Source: Eledone cirrhosa
Lineage: Eukaryota
Length of the DNA: 64,000 nt
Direction: 5' to 3'
Assembly: GCA_964016885.1 (NCBI GenBank)
Contig: OZ024748.1
Span: forward strand, 41,230,001 to 41,294,000
The notes beneath the pieces are model-generated. The model was not told the DNA's origin. It made no database searches and saw nothing but the letters and a program-made list of their open reading frames with translations. Positions 17,935 to 41,532 of the stretch are shown piece by piece (position 1 is the first letter of the stretch; each line of letters begins with the position of its first letter). Both the position numbers and the translations under genes were made by a program.

Positions 17935-18000
17935 TATTTTATTATATATATTTCAAGGGCAACCAAGGCAAATTATGGTGCGCTTTCATCAGATAAAATA
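17935..18000 (-). ncRNA. Minimal type I hammerhead ribozyme motif (family A, TATATA stem III)
   Basis: The minus strand reads tattttat-CTGATGA-aagcgcacca..tggttgccctt-GAAA-tatata-TA-ataaaata. Stem I is 8 bp and the element ends in (TA)n about 43 nt downstream. Confidence 0.8.
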
Positions 18001-25024: not shown

Positions 25025-25081
<57 letters not shown>

Positions 25082-25238
25082 AACCAGTAAGACCCCGACA
25101 GCTGAGCTCAAGCCGTTTCGAAACGGCTTGAGCTCAGCTGTCGGGGTCTTACTGGTTCCTATTACCCACTCTACTACCTCAAGTATTGAGTACTTTGGTG
25201 CGTTATGGTCCACCTGGTTCCTTACCACATTTCCTTCG

Positions 25239-25305
<67 letters not shown>

Positions 25306-25685: not shown

Positions 25686-25750
25686 TATTTTATCTGATGA
25701 AGACGTACTGCAAAAAAACAACACTGTACCTTTGAAATATATATAATAAA
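25686..25750 (+). ncRNA. Minimal type I hammerhead ribozyme motif (family A-related, different stem II)
   Basis: tttat-CTGATGA-agacgtac..gtaccttt-GAAA-tatata-TA-ataaa, then about 55 nt to (TA)n. Confidence 0.7.
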
Positions 25751-25796: not shown

Positions 25797-25863
<67 letters not shown>

Positions 25864-26066
25864 TATGTACACGTACATACAATTATGTATACCGACGTAC
25901 AGTAGTATGTATATACATATATACATACATGCACACATATATATATGCACGTATGGATTCACCGAACATTTATTATAATGCTCGGTGTGTTTGTAAACAA
26001 ACATCCCGTATTGAGCCGTAGTGTCTAGCAACCACCGTTGCTCGATTGTTCAACACTAACAAAGGA

Positions 26067-26109
26067 ACGCTGTACTAGTTTCAAGCTTGTTAGCTATCGT
26101 CAGCAACGT
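26067..26109 (-). ncRNA. Minimal type I hammerhead ribozyme motif (family D, CTAG stem III)
   Basis: The minus strand reads acgttg-CTGACGA-tagctaacaagctt-GAAA-ctag-TA-cagcgt. Confidence 0.8.
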
Positions 26110-26488
26110 ATACCTTCCTGCCAGATTGTTGAACGTATATACTTACCTTATGCATATTAACGGCTGAGTAGCCCAATATGCATATCGAGTGGGTTAATCG
26201 GCCGGGTGCACCGAAAACGATAAACGGAAAAAATGAAACGATATTTCATTTCCCACTCTTAGTACGGCTGTTACTTAAATATAAGTATGTACACGTACAT
26301 ACATATATGTATACCGACGTACAGTAATATGTATATACATATATACATACATGCACACATATATATATGCACGTATGGATTCACCGAACATTTATTATAA
26401 TGCTCGGTGTGTTTGTAAACAAACATCCCGTATTAAGCCGTAGTGTCTAGCAACCACCGTTGCTCGTTTGTTCAACACTGACAAAGGA

Positions 26489-26531
26489 ACGCTGTACTAG
26501 TTTCAAGCTTGTTAGCTATCGTCAGCAACGT
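26489..26531 (-). ncRNA. Minimal type I hammerhead ribozyme motif (family D)
   Basis: Identical to 26067-26109 and 422 bp away. Confidence 0.8.
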
Positions 26532-26692
26532 ATACCTTCGTATACCTGGGAAATGAAATATCGTTTCATTTTTTCCGTTTATCTTTTTCGGTGCACCCGG
26601 CCGATTAACCCACTCGATATGCATATTGGGCTACTCAGCCGTTAATATGCATAAGGTAAGTATATACGTTCAACAATCTGGCAGGAAGGTAT

Positions 26693-26735
26693 ACGTTGCT
26701 GACGATAGCTAAGAAGCTTGAAACTAGTACAGCGT
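26693..26735 (+). ncRNA. Minimal type I hammerhead ribozyme motif (family D)
   Basis: acgttg-CTGACGA-tagc-taagaa-gctt-GAAA-ctag-TA-cagcgt. Confidence 0.8.
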
Positions 26736-26998
26736 TCCTTTGTCAGTGTTGAACAAACGAGCAACGGTGGTTGCTAGACACTACGGCTTAATACGGGATG
26801 TTTGTTTACAAACACACCGAGAATTATAATAAATGTTCGGTGAATCCATACGTGCATATATATATGTGTGCATGTATGTATATATGTATATACATACTAC
26901 TGTACGTCGGTATACATATATGTATGTACGTGTACATACTTATATTTAAGTAACAGCCGTACGAAGAGTGGGAAATGAAATATCGTTTCATTTTTTCC

Positions 26999-27050
<52 letters not shown>

Positions 27051-27324
27051 GGAAAAGAATGAAACGAAATTTCATTTCTCACTCTTAGTACGGCACTTAC
27101 TTAAATGCAAGTATGTATGTATACGTACATACATATATGTATACAGACGTACAGTAGCATGTATATATATACATACAGGCACACATATATATATGCACGT
27201 ATCAGTTTACCGAACATTTATTATAATGCTCGGTTTGTTCGTTTGTAAACAAACAAACAGCCTGATTTACGCCGTACAGTGTTTAGGCAACCACGTCACC
27301 TTTTTGTTCAACACTGACACAGGA

Positions 27325-27367
27325 ACGATGTACTAGTTTCAAGCTTATTAGCTATCGTCAGCACCAT
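27325..27367 (-). ncRNA. Minimal type I hammerhead ribozyme motif (family D, diverged with compensatory changes)
   Basis: The minus strand reads atggtg-CTGACGA-tagctaataagctt-GAAA-ctag-TA-catcgt. Three stem I substitutions all keep pairing. Confidence 0.8.
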
Positions 27368-27422
27368 ATACCTTTCTGCCAGATGGTTGAACGTCAGAAA
27401 GTATATACTTTCCTTATGAAAA

Positions 27423-27470
<48 letters not shown>

Positions 27471-27512
27471 ACGATATTAAATAAATGGAAACTATATTTA
27501 TAAAACCATATT

Positions 27513-27577
27513 TATTTTATTATATATATTTCAAGGGCAACCAAGACAACATTGGTACGCTTTCATCAGATAAAATA
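27513..27577 (-). ncRNA. Minimal type I hammerhead ribozyme motif (family A)
   Basis: The minus strand reads tattttat-CTGATGA-aagcgtacca..tggttgccctt-GAAA-tatata-TA-ataaaata. Its downstream tail (27472-27505) is mirrored in inverted form at ~27674-27706. Confidence 0.8.
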
Positions 27578-31475: not shown

Positions 31476-31831
31476 CACCTGATACAGTAAAGTCAGCCTT
31501 AATATGACTCTTCATCTACTTGTCTATTATTCTTTACCTATATTTGTTTTTTCTTAAAAGTAGTTTTGCCTGAACACATCTATCTCTCTATCTCTCTATT
31601 TATTTATCTATCTATCTATCTATCTATCTTGATAGAGTAAGACACGCTTCGCATCGGCTCCGCTATTCCATCGGGATTTACCCTTACTATTGTAAGTACT
31701 GGATAAATTTTTTAGTGCAACACATTTGGAACACTAACCCCTGTTATTTAGGGAAACATTTTTGCATTTACCCCCTTTTTAGGGGGTAAAATAAATATCT
31801 ATTTTTGCCGAAAAATTTCTTTTTTGGCAGC

Positions 31832-33535
31832 ATGGCGGAAAAGATGGCAGACATGTCTGCCATTAGCTCTGCCACGCCCCCCAAGTCTGAAGAACAAAAA
31901 ATAATTACAACAAAATTAGACATTGAAACAAACAAACAAAATGAAAAAACAAATGTTAAGGAAAATGAGCAAACAGAAAACAAACAAACAGAAAATAATA
32001 CAAATAACGACAGGGCAACTTTCGCCCAGAAAACAAAACAATCCATTACATACACACCAATTGACCTAACTGCCGCCAGAGAAAAACTGGCCGAAGCAAA
32101 GAAACACATTGTTTTGGGGGAGAACGGAATGTTTTCCATTAACTCCCCCCCCCCCCCCCCAGAATTCAAGAAAGCCAGAGCAGAAAACACAGTTCTATAC
32201 AGAACTATACTGAACCAGACAAGAAAGCCAGCACAGCCCAGCCAAATGGAAATAGAGTTAGTCCTAAAAGACTATATGAAGAATATTCTCTTCATACGAA
32301 AGGACCGACTCTATGGCAGCATTTCGGTCCTAACAAGAGACAAAGAAACGGCGGAGAAGCTTTCCCTAAGCCCACTCTCGTCGACAACATATAGCTTCTA
32401 TCCCTCCTACATGGGTAGAAGAACACAGAGAGTAAAAGTAAAAACAATGCTGCCCACAATGGACTTCTGGTGGGCTATTGCTGGCTTCATTGATATGGGC
32501 GAAGACACTATGCTGTCAATGGGGAAGGCAACTGGAGATGCGTTCCTGGGAATGGGCCTCGACATACTAGTCCAAATGAGGCCCGAAAGAATAGCACAAA
32601 TCCCGGATCGCATCTGGCTGGATGACCTTACCCCAATAGACATAATTGTAGAGGGGAGAAGACCAGCATGCTATTTATGCATGGAAAGGGGACACGTTAA
32701 GGCTAACTGCCCGAAACGTATCCCCCAAAAAGGACTATTGCCCACACCCACCACAAACAGTACACCAGCACCACCCACCTCCAAAAATACACTAATACCA
32801 CACACAGCAAACAAAATACAGACACCACCAACCACAAACACAACACAAACATCACCACCACCAGCACCAAACACAAGCACGACACAAAAATCACCACCAC
32901 CAACCACAACACAAACATCACCACCACCATCACCAACCACAAGCACGACACAAACATTACCACCACCACCACCACCACAAAACCCATTCCAAACAAATAA
33001 TAAAAAAAACAGTAACAAATCTACCCCTCCCGCAAAAAAAAAACAACCACACAACACGTCCCTCCCACCTAGCGCTGAAGAGTTTCCCCCAACTTCTGAA
33101 GAAGAAGGAGGAGAAGCCTTCAGACAAGTTAAAAGAAAAAAAAGAAAACACACACCCAGCACACCACAAATAACCCACACACAAACACCAACTCCAATCA
33201 AAAACACCCCACCCTCAACAAACAAAAATAAATCTGCGCCTCCCCTCTCCGAAACATTGACAGCATCACAAAAAAAGACGTTGCAATACACATATATAAA
33301 TAAAGAAAACAAAAAACTGGTTAAATTAATAAACAATAACCCTATGGTGCAGACCGAAGGGCCAAACTTTATCTCAACAGAGAACTTCACCCATTTAAAA
33401 ATGATAAAGGTCCCTCTGGACCTTTATCGTTCCTTAAAAGAACAATTTAGACGGGACGTGAGCCCCCCCCCCCTGTTTAAAACCGTTGAATCGCGTCCTC
33501 TTGAAAGATTTCCCCATAACCGCCCCTCTCCCTGA
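31832..33535 (+). CDS. LINE ORF1 (gag-like nucleic-acid-binding protein with CCHC zinc knuckle and Pro/Thr-rich tail)
   Basis: First ATG at 31832 (agcATGG). Zinc knuckle CYLCMERGHVKANC preceded by VEGRRPA. Basic motif QVKRKKRK. Confidence 0.85.
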   Translation: MAEKMADMSAISSATPPKSEEQKIITTKLDIETNKQNEKTNVKENEQTENKQTENNTNNDRATFAQKTKQSITYTPIDLTAAREKLAEAKKHIVLGENGMFSINSPPPPPEFKKARAENTVLYRTILNQTRKPAQPSQMEIELVLKDYMKNILFIRKDRLYGSISVLTRDKETAEKLSLSPLSSTTYSFYPSYMGRRTQRVKVKTMLPTMDFWWAIAGFIDMGEDTMLSMGKATGDAFLGMGLDILVQMRPERIAQIPDRIWLDDLTPIDIIVEGRRPACYLCMERGHVKANCPKRIPQKGLLPTPTTNSTPAPPTSKNTLIPHTANKIQTPPTTNTTQTSPPPAPNTSTTQKSPPPTTTQTSPPPSPTTSTTQTLPPPPPPQNPFQTNNKKNSNKSTPPAKKKQPHNTSLPPSAEEFPPTSEEEGGEAFRQVKRKKRKHTPSTPQITHTQTPTPIKNTPPSTNKNKSAPPLSETLTASQKKTLQYTYINKENKKLVKLINNNPMVQTEGPNFISTENFTHLKMIKVPLDLYRSLKEQFRRDVSPPPLFKTVESRPLERFPHNRPSP

Positions 33536-33679
33536 CACAACTCCAAATACCCCAACCCCACCACACACGTGTACCCCCACACCACCACAAAACATCCCTC
33601 CACCCAACACACCTGATGCCATGGAAATTACGCAACCCGGAGAGGTAAGTGCTTTTCTTTCTTCACTTTCAACACCAAA

Positions 33680-36600
33680 ATAGATCAATTGAGAGTTGGC
33701 TGTTTGAACGCGCGTGGCCTGGGCTCAGCTTGGAAGCAAGCAAAGCTTCTAAGTGACCTCAGGTCACAAAGTATAGATGTGATGGTTGTTTGCGAGAGTC
33801 GGATCAGCAGCGTGAGACAGCTGGCGCCCGCCTTCGATGACTTTGAGATGCACGCATCTCTCTGTCAACCCGGAGGCGGGGGGGGGGGGAGTTGCCGTAC
33901 TGCTGGATAAACGTCTGACTCTCGACGTACAGATTGTTCACTCGGACCCGGGGGGTCGATTACTGGTGCTGGACGTCGGAGGCGGTGAAGGCGGGGCTTT
34001 CAGACTGGTCGGTCTTTATGCTCCCTTCGGGGCGGAAAGAGCCGACTTCTTCCAGCGTCTGGAGACTTTTCTAGGAACGTCGCGTTCCCTGCTTTTAGTG
34101 GGGGACTGGAATGGAATCCTAGATGCGCGTTGGGACTATGCAGGGGCATGTCCCGATAGAGGGGGGTGTAGCAGCCTCAAGGGGTTACTCGATCGATTCG
34201 ACCTGGTCGATAGATTTCGACTAGATTGTCCAACTGCGCCAACCTGGACCTGGGCAAACCGCAGTGGACAATCTAGATCGTACCTAGATAGGTTTTTGGT
34301 TAGGAGTAAGGATAGGGACGTATTTAGTTGTCCAGAACTGATCATGGTTGGCTATTCAGATCACAAATTAGTGACCTGCGTGGTCAACCTTGATAGAACG
34401 CATAGACAGGGTCCCGGTTACTGGAAGATGAACTTGTCCTTGCCGACAAAGAAAGATTACAGAAACCGGATTAGTAGCTTAGTTAAGATGCGGTTGACGG
34501 GAGCGATCGTCAACAGTAGGTGGTGGGTATCTCTAAAGAGAGAGATTAGAGTAAGTTCGATAGGTTACAGTAAGGAACTAGCGGCGAATAGAAATAGGAA
34601 GGAAAGGGAGTTAACAGATAAACTAGAAGAGGCGATTAGGAGCGGAGACGTAGCCAGAGTGTTAGCGGCAAGAACGGCGTTGAGCCAGTTCTTTGACGCG
34701 AAGCACGAAGGCTGCGTTGTCCGAAGTAAAATACGTGCTTTAGGAAACGAGGGGACCAAAGCTGTTAGCTGGGCCCGCGTGACAGAAGCCAAGAGTGGAA
34801 TTAAATCCACCATTCGGTCTTTGCGAGACCAGGATGGACGGGTGATCCTTGAACCTGAGCGAATGTGCGAGGCCTTTCAAAGGCACTTTGCTCGACTGTT
34901 CGGAGGTGGCGGGGGGCCGGACGGGGATGTGGACTTCGGTCCATACCTCGACGGTCTACCGCGTCTTTCGAGCGGCGAAGCGGAGTGCTGCGAAAGGCCA
35001 ATCACAGCCACTGAAATCGGGGAAGTGCTCAGCCAATGCAGCAGACGCAAATCCCCGGGTCTCGATGGTCTACCATACGAACTTTATTTAGCTATGCCGG
35101 TCTTGTTCTCCGAACTCCTCGAGGCTGTCTATTGCAACTGGCAACAGAACGGGAGAATTCCCTGTTCTGTGACCAAGGGCGTGGTCACGCTAGTGAGGAA
35201 GGACGAGAGCAAGGGGGACGACTTAAGTAATTTTAGGCCCATAACTCTGCTGAATGCAGAGTTACAGATTTTGGCCAAGGTGTTGGCGAAGAGGTTGGCG
35301 CTTGTGGTGGGTGGTTTGGTAGGAGACGCGCAGACATGCGCTATCCCGTCCAGGTCCATTCACGACAACCTCCACCTCATGCGATACATCATAGAGAGGG
35401 TTGGCTACGAACCCGGCTTTGGTGGGGCCCTGATCAACTTGGATCAATCTAAGGCGTTCGATAGGGTCGACCATGGTTACCTGGATGCGGTGCTAGCGGC
35501 GGCGGGCTTCGGACCCGTTTTCAGGGGCTGGATTTCTGCCATGCACAGTGGCAACATCTACTCTAGGATTAAAGTAAACGGCTACCTCTCGGAGCCGTTT
35601 CAAATCACCCGGTCCATCAGACAGGGGGTGCCCCCTCTCCTCCCTTCTGTACGTATTGACTCTCGAGCCACTGCTGCGAAAGTTGGAGTTGCTGCGGGGC
35701 ATACCCCTGGAACCGGGATTGCACAAAGCGGTCTCGGCCTATGCCGACGACGTAACAGTAATGGTGGCGGACGCCTCGGAAATCGGGGTGATCGCCACCC
35801 TACTGGAGGAATACGAAAGGCTGACGGGGGCTAGGCTGAACCAGGACAAGTCAGTCGGTTTGCAACTCGGAACGTGGAGGGGCAAACCGATGCCGTTAGA
35901 CGGTGTCGTCGGGCGGTGGACGGAGGGCCCGGTGAAGCTACTCGGGGTCTGGTTCGGACCGGACCTCCAGGTGGAGAAGAATTGGGGCGAGGTGACGAGC
36001 AGAGTGTTTGCGCTGACCCAGAAGTGGGCCAAGTGCAAACTATCACTGAAAGGTCGGGCGGAGGTGACGAGCGCTTACATAGCGTCCGTCATCTACTACC
36101 GCCTGACCGTCGTGCCTTGCCCCAAGGAAAAGCTCACCATCATGGAACGCATGCTCTTCCAGTTCCTCTGGAAGAAGCGGCCTCCCATGGTGAGGAGATC
36201 CATCTGCTGCCAGCACCCTTCGAAAGGAGGGCTGGGTATGCCGTGGCTGTTGATGCGTAGGCACGCATTGAGGCTACGGCATCTACAGGTATTCCTCAAC
36301 GGTCAGCCGGTGTGGGCCCCGTTTGTGAGGCGAGCCTTCCCACAGCTCGTCTCGCTCACCGAACTGCAATCCTGGGTGAAGCAAAGACCGAGAAAACTGG
36401 GCAACTGGCACACCGAGTGTGCCCAGGCGCTCACGGCTATCTGGCAAGCGGACCCGACTATCAGTGGAGAATCCACCTCGACATTCTATAGAGGGTTGGT
36501 GGCTAGCAAGGGCGACGACACCCTTGGAGAGTTGCTAGGCATGGAGGAGGACGAACTGGCCAGCCTGTTCGGTAGAACTTTCGGCCCGGGACCCATGGAC

Positions 36601-37122
36601 GACTTCCAGAGGTCCCTAGCCTGGCAGTGTTACCGAGGGGCTCTGCCCGTTCGAGAAAAGCTCTACAGACACGGGCGCCCGGGCAGGGATCCCGCGAAAA
36701 AGATCTGCCCCAGATGCGTGCGCGACGAGGAAACCGTTGCGCATGCACTGGTACACTGCCCGGGCGTTGCCGATCTGTGGGGCTACGTCGAACGACTGCT
36801 GTCTCGTGTGGCGCCGATTCGATTAACCGCCGAGTCTGTGGTGAACATCAAGCCGCCTCCTCCCTTCAGAAATGAAGCAGAGGCGGTCTTTCTGTGCGTA
36901 ATAGCCATGATGAAAGAGGTTGTGTGGTGGACGCGCCTGAAAGGTCTGAGGTCGGGTGACTTTCTCTCCGGCCATCACCTGGTTTACTTCTTCCGATACC
37001 ACTTCGGAAGAAGGATCAGGATGGAGAGAGAAGTGCTTGGCCCCAGACAGTTTTATGAAAGGTGGGTGAAAGAAGTGAGAATGGCCCGTGTAAATGGGCC
37101 TTCTCTCTACATTGTTCTGTAG
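33680..37122 (+). CDS. LINE ORF2: AP endonuclease, reverse transcriptase and C-terminal CCHC zinc finger (two +1 frameshifts in G runs)
   Basis: APE motifs LNARGL, VCES, GGVAVL, YAP, GDWN, YLDRFL, SDH. RT motifs KSPGLDGLP, NFRPITLLN, LDQSKAFDRVDH, RQGCPLS (after removing one G at 35624-35628), YADD. Zinc finger CPRCVRDEETVAHALVHC. The first shift lies in G12 at 33878-33889. The start is inferred at in-frame ATA 33680. Confidence 0.92.
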
Positions 37123-37622: not shown

Positions 37623-37693
37623 TGTTTTATCTGATGAAAACACAAATATTATTGCATGATGATGTTTGTTTTTGAAATGCGCATAATAAAATA
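37623..37693 (+). ncRNA. Minimal type I hammerhead ribozyme motif (family B, TGCGCA stem III)
   Basis: tgttttat-CTGATGA-aaacacaaatatt..gatgtttgttttt-GAAA-tgcgca-TA-ataaaata. It lies inside 39-bp inverted repeats at 37525-37563 and 37695-37733, ending in (TA)n. Confidence 0.85.
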
Positions 37694-37723
37694 CATGGAA
37701 CTCCTTTAACCATCTTTTGATCT

Positions 37724-40521: not shown

Positions 40522-40559
<38 letters not shown>

Positions 40560-40689
40560 AAAGTTATATTTAATTTGTTGGGATTCAACAAGCTTAAAAG
40601 TTTTATAACTGATATAAAGCACTCAACAGTTTACTGGAGTAAATATTCGATATATTAATAAATGGAAACTATATTTATAAAACCATAAT

Positions 40690-40754
40690 TATTTTATTAT
40701 ATATATTTCAAGAGCAACCAAGGCAGTTTTGGTGCGCTTTCATCAGATAAAATA
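40690..40754 (-). ncRNA. Minimal type I hammerhead ribozyme motif (family A)
   Basis: The minus strand reads tattttat-CTGATGA-aagcgcacca..tggttgctctt-GAAA-tatata-TA-ataaaata. Confidence 0.8.
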
Positions 40755-40862
40755 CAAAATTTGTTTTATAAATGTTGACATACCCGGTAGACTATCCAGC
40801 GAACCTCCAACCGTCAAGATCGTTTTTCTGTGGGTATGTCAACATCTATAAAACAAATTTTG

Positions 40863-40928
40863 TATTTTATCTGATGAAAGCGCACCAAAATTTGCCTTGG
40901 TTGCTCTTGAAATATATATAATAAAATA
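40863..40928 (+). ncRNA. Minimal type I hammerhead ribozyme motif (family A)
   Basis: tattttat-CTGATGA-aagcgcaccaaaatttgccttggttgctctt-GAAA-tatata-TA-ataaaata. Confidence 0.82.
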
Positions 40929-40969
40929 ATTATGGTTTTATAAATATAGTTTCCATTTATTAATATATC

Positions 40970-41036
<67 letters not shown>

Positions 41037-41193: not shown

Positions 41194-41280
<87 letters not shown>

Positions 41281-41319
41281 ACGTACATACATATATGTAT
41301 ACAGACGTACAGTAGTATG

Positions 41320-41374
<55 letters not shown>

Positions 41375-41476
41375 CTACTGTACGCCTGTATACATATATG
41401 TATGTACGTATACATACTTATATTTAAGTAACAGCCGTACTAAGAGTGAGAAATGAAATTTCGTTTCATTTTTTCC

Positions 41477-41532
<56 letters not shown>

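Follow-up and report, generated by a model that had tools for sequence, protein, structure and literature searches.

The locus studied here poses two questions: what kind of element a 422-bp noncoding repeat with a hammerhead in each unit is, and how its copies come to lie in inverted arms between (TA)n tracts. It lies in a 64,000-nucleotide stretch of the Eledone cirrhosa genome, which we call the window. A sequence-only reading of the window had proposed a retrozyme, whose monomers would be cut from a minus-strand transcript and circularize. We followed this proposal at the locus and through the genome. Its overall reading stood as to the tandem noncoding monomer, the type I hammerhead, the 38% GC content and the strong fold, and three points had to be corrected.

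Structure of the window locus

The locus is a two-armed insertion (Table 1). Monomer positions are numbered from the predicted cut in the hammerhead sense. The left arm has its outer 3′ end at position 219 (the short end, without a tail) and its inner 5′ end at 378, and the right arm runs from an inner 5′ end at 240 to an outer 3′ end at 275 (the long end). The unit at 25860-26281 recurs at 26282-26539 with 97.7% identity; the head-to-tail spacing of 422 claimed earlier is thus real, in a tandem of only 1.63 units. The inverted arm and its (TA)n bounds were also as described, and the two predicted cuts, 422 nt apart, match the cleavage site that had been predicted. The monomer between them differs at 2 positions from a majority-type genomic unit. 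The window locus is a short/long insertion like other copies of the family.

A diverged sister copy had been described alongside. It is present, and it is a separate insertion: 375 of its 382 aligned bases equal a genomic monomer of a 442-bp subfamily, and by its sequence it is an independent insertion of another young subfamily. The fragments previously placed at about 41276-41482 were recovered as a miniature insertion, whose left arm stops near the short end and right arm at the long end when read by eye.

Table 1. Features of the window locus, related insertions and full units of the young PLE.
Feature	Position	Strand	Remarks
(TA)n target, left flank	25801..25861	.	
Left arm	25854..26539	-	686 nt = 1.63 monomers
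Type I hammerhead 1	26067..26109	-	predicted cut 26073/26072
Predicted 422-nt monomer, cut to cut	26073..26494	-	38% GC
Type I hammerhead 2	26489..26531	-	predicted cut 26495/26494
Inversion junction	26540..26546	.	7-nt filler, repeats adjacent bases
Right arm, inverted	26547..27004	+	458 nt = 1.09 monomers, 98% identity
Type I hammerhead 3	26693..26735	+	sole one in right arm; one change in loop II
"Tail" (monomer 220-275)	26949..27004	+	56 nt, terminal on one arm only; predicted hairpin inside
(TA)n target, right flank	27002..27047	.	common to main and sister insertions
One-armed insertion, 442-bp sister subfamily	27045..27426	-	long end; one hammerhead; 81% to main unit
Type I hammerhead, sister copy	27325..27367	-	
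Miniature two-armed insertion, related subfamily	41274..41482	.	without hammerhead; read by eye
Young PLE full units	L316:3502-7703, also L317, L318		4202 bp

Minus-strand read-through of this locus had been put forward as the source of RNA circles, which our folding does not favor. Only the left arm spans two predicted cuts. A transcript entering from the right would contain the antisense arm first, and 392 of the 458 bases of that arm are predicted to pair with the left arm in a long hairpin that buries one left-arm hammerhead and misfolds the other. Because of this predicted burial, the window copy would probably yield few circles, and arrays with a single arm or with arms of very different length are likelier to be productive.

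Other elements lie nearby. A second hammerhead family with a TA palindrome as loop III, with 2215 candidates genome-wide, occurs at 17960-18000, 25687-25745, 27510-27575, 37624-37700 and 40555-40972; at the last of these sites the insertion has two arms, of which a single one carries a tail, roughly 90 nt long. At 25080-25240 an almost perfect palindrome of some 80 bp is flanked by (TA)n tracts; it is perhaps another miniature insertion with two arms, and L308 has a similar sequence. A LINE-type element at 31790-37122 has one ORF of 581 codons and another that lies in two frames and matches endonuclease, RT and zf-RVT.

Hammerheads and predicted RNA fold

A motif scan of the window returned four type I hammerheads of one kind, built of a 6-bp stem I, a 4-bp stem II with U.U at its base and a helix III of one pair closed by a palindromic 4-nt loop III. 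Hammerhead 2 has only 14 nt of element upstream of its core, so its stem I extension is missing. Forcing helix III in the monomer changed the predicted energy from -6.7 to -1.3 kcal/mol (a cost of about 5.4 kcal/mol), and the palindromic loop is predicted to pair with a second copy at -4.8 kcal/mol. For these reasons a double hammerhead, a form described for metazoan motifs in the accessible part of PMC4209133, is likely to be the active form.

Rfam gave no hammerhead match at the gathering score or among 123 weak matches, which were miRNA-type models on TA hairpins, and the isolated 61-nt hammerhead folded no better than its shuffles (z of 0.07 to 0.68). The circular fold reached z values of -8.9, -6.1 and -9.4 for three subfamilies, the first computed against 60 dinucleotide shuffles and due in part to a TA-rich hairpin. 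In the hammerhead model 98.2% of cells pair, with one double change in stem I. Core and stems are conserved across the alignment, in which 15 of the 28 rows come from loci chosen by the exact core pattern, so that core invariance is partly built in. Over the whole monomer, several helices keep pairing between subfamilies and 12 of 126 pairs show double changes, these being few independent events among related sequences. The longest stop-free stretch in six frames of the doubled monomer was 53 codons, and no ORF with RT plus GIY-YIG was found in the monomer.

A genome-wide family

The exact hammerhead core motif occurs 24,191 times in the 3.0-Gb genome and its reversed control not once; this abundance is not chance. 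A search with the unit gave 214 matches from the 40 scored of 891 candidates, and the matches listed are at 99% identity and on several chromosomes. On these sequence comparisons the 422-bp repeat is a young, dispersed, noncoding, genome-wide family. Subfamilies have monomers of about 420, 442 and 456-538 bp, with identity down to 73%, and the 442-bp subfamily has its own copies at 98-99% identity. Against the retrozyme size range of about 150-450 bp, the 422-bp units fit and related subfamilies reach 538 bp. Exact matches to an end plus TA number 453 and 1316 for the two ends, 23 of the 120 end-anchored loci described below hold at least two tandem intact cores, and arms reach 16 or more units.

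One of the seven sequencing runs listed is recorded as RNA (share 0.04; 0 contigs), and contigs cannot show circles. Related sequence in runs X2 (11,910 contigs), X5 (4) and X6 (3), labelled organisms A, B and C, has no bearing on RNA, the library type being unrecorded. Further hammerhead families appeared at L152 (7700 and 8159), L156, L160 and L166; one is tandem at 459-bp spacing and one has a long helix III.

Outer ends are fixed and inner ends are scattered

We parsed 20 stretches around the best matches, 87 anchored on the long end and 33 anchored on the short end. The 120 end-anchored loci were chosen for one TA-flanked end; the best-match set was not so chosen. Eight pairs were dropped, six of 66 in a first round of parsing (a complex locus, a pair cut at the edge, and two each of local duplicates and old-subfamily pairs) and two of 25 in a second round (identity under 88%), leaving 83 two-armed insertions. 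Their head-to-head orientation, with 3′ ends facing outward into (TA)n, follows from the parsing.

The pair of outer ends was 219/275 in 66 of the 83, 219/219 in two, one of them a parsing artifact of an internal piece (L207), and 275/275 in none; in the other 15 one or both ends were noncanonical, some being cut by the fetched edge. For the 68 insertions with two canonical ends, this departs from independent 50:50 end choice at p=1.6e-17. Canonical ends adjoin (TA)n directly in 148 of 161 cases. Since both ends fall in short UA-rich motifs, their exact positions may be off by a few bases, and with (TA)n on both flanks any target-site duplication would be unreadable. The homologous ends of the sister subfamily, 229/286, were paired short/long in 12 of 17 two-armed cases read by eye; of the remainder three were odd, one unresolved and one apparently long/long. 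Because longer internal TA runs of the monomer were never outer ends in the sets parsed, we suggest that RT start sites are set by protein or structure. A common short motif at the start sites was weighed by eye and dropped.

The inner ends behave differently from these fixed ends. They scatter round the monomer, with 2 of 166 within 5 nt of the cleavage site (4.3 expected) and none at 412-4 (5.9 expected). Junction offsets were -4 to +3 nt in 55 of the 83 insertions. In the end-anchored sets the median arms were 403 and 463 nt, and 12 of 102 exceeded two units. We also saw an excess of inner ends at 384-411 (26 versus 11 expected), as if copying stalls just past the cut/ligation site.

It had been expected that copies would start and end at differing points of the unit. 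That is so for the inner ends; the outer 3′ ends are fixed, and breakpoint mapping gave no circular permutation of them. Fixed inverted termini had in turn been taken as a sign of a DNA transposon. Here the termini are unequal and would mark Penelope-type retrotransposition. By analogy, the 219/275 offset is a PLE tail signature on a noncoding repeat.

The 87 long-end-anchored loci comprised 38 two-armed, 43 scored as one-armed, several of which show a very short second arm by eye, and 6 not parsed. The 43 one-armed copies had no common upstream parent sequence besides the family itself, bar one weak pair.

Both arms derive from one template or source

With TA-rich monomer positions masked, 29 rare variants were common to both arms, against 0.55 (maximum 5) over 300 permutations of arms among loci, and common-variant concordance between arms was 80% versus 18% in the first 60 insertions. 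These results show that the two arms derive from one template or source. At sites with at least three copies over both arms, 52 variants were in all copies (24 loci), many of them common subfamily markers, versus 15 present in each arm yet missing from some copies (5 loci). Private variants occurred in every copy at L032 (9/9), L125 (8/8) and L103 (3/3). Unit length was the same in both arms of most long insertions (424 in L035, 426 in L036) and differed between arms in L039 and L214.

Cleavage-site crossing bears on the form of the template. The usual template was not a cut linear monomer, since 116 of 150 arms run across the site and the register is kept at 267 of 268 junctions. Private variants in all copies follow directly from a circle, and would require uniform source arrays if an uncleaved multimer were copied; we judge a circular template about twice as likely as a multimeric one, and the circular template of the sequence-only reading is in this way supported indirectly. 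In the catalytic core, 580 site-by-locus observations held no all-copy variant and 16 single-copy ones; counted by distinct variants, hammerhead depletion of template-level variants was not significant (2 versus 48, Fisher p=0.10). In old loci the arms may have undergone gene conversion, which would, however, poorly explain why variants are completely fixed in young loci with few other changes.

DNA-level array expansion is real. In the 10-unit array L124 variants recur with period 2, and in L039 one variant runs through 7 units in a row; given these two loci, we rejected array length as proof of rolling-circle copying. L124 looks like an expanded dimer, arising via DNA duplication or a dimeric circle.

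An A>G excess among both-arm variants (8/25, Fisher p=0.003, 4 loci) was absent from 23 new insertions (0/11; pooled 6/29, p=0.04), and an RNA editing signature was dropped since the excess failed to replicate. L100 and L103 have A>G clusters on the hammerhead strand in both arms (4 and 3 sites), possibly from an edited template.

A candidate autonomous partner

We scored 150 of 10,597 GIY-YIG candidates in the genome. Four of five long ORFs tested matched both RT and GIY-YIG, and in one PLE family all 40 scored matches were 100% identical, an identity that marks this family as very young. Its 4202-bp unit (Table 1) has a CX2-5CxxC linker motif, which is described for Neptune and Nematis PLEs (PMC8557442, accessible text). 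From the hammerhead of the unit to its end in (TA)n the distance is 127 or 188 nt, an offset of 61 nt; by the same measure the retrozyme end offset is 59 nt. Four two-armed copies have one short and one long end. L319, a deleted derivative, has two noncanonical, near-equal ends (432/435). Two traits of the retrozyme hammerhead recur in that of the PLE, namely the palindromic loop III and the U.U at the stem II base.

Outside the hammerhead core, no alignment between the retrozyme and the full 4202-bp unit rose above shuffles, and for this reason the 4202-bp PLE is a candidate partner only. A terminal repeat homologous to the monomer was likewise not found at 40 GIY-YIG loci and in one full PLE unit, where scores stayed within shuffle range.

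Each of the three full units has an ORF of 476 codons that overlaps one of 775 codons. Where the overlap begins there is a heptamer, T TTT TTA, whose phase is correct for a -1 shift and which we take to be a slippery site. This layout may reflect a programmed frameshift or an intron; PLEs are described as single-ORF.

Proposed mechanism and alternatives

The arm geometry, the 219/275 rule, the read-through of the cleavage site and the variants in both arms are read directly in the DNA. We consider it rather probable that the family is a retrozyme copied by a PLE enzyme that primes twice on one, probably circular, RNA and inserts it in (TA)n. An array would be transcribed, paired hammerheads would cut the transcript to monomers, and a host ligase would close these. 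A PLE RT-endonuclease dimer would then cut both strands of a (TA)n tract, one cut end priming at monomer position ~275 and the other at ~219. Each copy would run round the template for a random length, and the two cDNA ends would be joined with little or no overlap; some arrays would later lengthen by DNA-level duplication. The fuller version, rolling-circle twin priming, in which each active site of a PLE dimer on one retrozyme circle has one fixed start (219 or 275), the young 4.2-kb Neptune-like PLE is the driver and the RNA is recognized by shape and spacing rather than sequence, seems to us to have an even chance of being right.

Double priming by a PLE on an uncleaved linear multimer would also account for read-through of the cleavage site. 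The hammerhead would then be slow or incidental, in keeping with a loop III too short for an efficient monomer hammerhead (about 5.4 kcal/mol), and uniform arrays would come from uniform sources and from DNA-level expansion, which is seen. Unprocessed RNA is moreover the main substrate of the anole PLE (PMC11167929). Yet the private variants in every unit of both arms (L032, L103 and L125) call for a bottleneck of one monomer at some stage, no locus is a clear unit-by-unit copy of a source array (15 partial cases, five older or palindromic loci), and the catalytic core lacks all-copy variants while carrying single-copy ones. We regard the multimer as a possible template, though a somewhat unlikely one.

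Shared variants would also be expected if the second arm were self-primed, through fold-back on either the first cDNA or an antisense template. Such self-priming is proposed in PMC3846280 for head-to-head rotifer Penelope structures, and near-perfect palindromic centers are in fact enriched (7 of 91 insertions versus 2.4 expected). Containment of one arm in the other is uncheckable in most insertions, where one arm is at least one unit long, but neither arm contains the other in 6 of the 66 canonical insertions (L099 has nonoverlapping arms 174-219 and 251-275) and the longer arm can be either one, which makes fold-back improbable. Most improbable of all is a DNA-level element, whether a foldback/MITE-like transposon, a Helitron derivative or a satellite that spreads through circular DNA. 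It would be in keeping with the inversion of the ends, the TA targets, the tandem repetition and the occasional expansion of arrays as DNA. It would not explain the unequal ends, the random center and length, without a fixed element size, or the retention of a hammerhead on the strand with outward-facing 3′ ends, and an RT plus GIY-YIG element of the same genome has the same two-end geometry. A foldback/MITE DNA transposon was rejected, as there are no symmetric terminal inverted repeats and no defined internal structure.

Relation to known systems

Like the metazoan non-LTR retrozymes of Cervera and de la Pena (2020, PMC7229834), the 422-bp repeat is a noncoding tandem of monomers a few hundred bases long, has a type I hammerhead, a GC content below 50% and a self-paired fold, and co-occurs with PLEs; at the level of DNA sequence it qualifies as one. 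Its one-pair helix III with a palindromic tetraloop resembles HHR_Amex1 of axolotl, and its U.U at the base of helix II resembles HHR_Amex2 (PMC7229834). RNA circles and cleavage are shown for the metazoan retrozymes, whereas both are predicted for the present family. In the main text of PMC7229834 the words "inverted" and "microsatellite" do not occur; here head-to-head arms, a one-sided tail and (TA)n are the rule.

PLE insertions are described as biased toward microsatellites and as including an inverted 5′-truncated copy, and often just one of their ends bears a tail (PMC8557442). In vitro, the anole PLE cuts and extends both strands, two internal RNA starts bound its tail, and hammerhead cleavage is not needed for insertion (PMC11167929). 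The family shares with EN+ PLEs the inverted 5′-truncated copy, the one-end tail, microsatellite/AT-rich targets and two RT starts (PMC8557442, PMC3846280, PMC11167929). It differs from them in having no ORF, a tail of 56-59 nt rather than 30-40 and arms that are monomer concatemers. Our counts give one start per arm, while the start site did not differ between strands for the anole PLE (PMC11167929). By analogy, the family works like a nonautonomous passenger of an endonuclease-bearing PLE. Nonautonomous Chlamys elements such as MRC1 (PMC8557442) are also noncoding PLE passengers, often multicopy head-to-tail; unlike the family here, they are described in that text without canonical hammerheads and with a 3′ end like that of their autonomous partners.

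The element class is known, and both PLE mobilization of retrozymes and circular templates have been proposed before (PMC4209133, PMC7229834; Li, Clavereau and Pollet preprint, bioRxiv 10.64898/2026.07.22.740005), genomic copying of circular retrozyme RNA having been a proposal since 2014-2020 (PMC4209133, PMC7229834). Li, Clavereau and Pollet present retrozymes as nonautonomous PLE derivatives and agree with us that PLE machinery mobilizes them. They argue from co-occurrence and pLTR homology, chiefly among vertebrates, and from phylogeny, and they ascribe arrays to local amplification; we found no pLTR homology, and our evidence is insertion geometry and shared variants. Eight of nine predicted Xenopus dimers did not cleave in that 2026 preprint. 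Our literature search, mostly outside subscription papers and supplements, found no report of inverted, tailed, two-start, one-template retrozyme insertions.

PMC8557442 treats the origin of inverted PLE insertions with one tail as an unsettled matter. The family described here gives countable footprints that bear both on this process and on the proposed copying of circular retrozyme RNA into the genome: each arm has one start, both arms share a template, and copying does not stop where the ribozyme would cut. If rolling-circle twin priming is correct, a single mechanism would account for the PLE tail, the head-to-head inversion and the retrozyme concatemers. The model specifies a small RNA, its two start positions and a candidate enzyme from a young PLE, and it is thereby testable in the published in vitro PLE assay.
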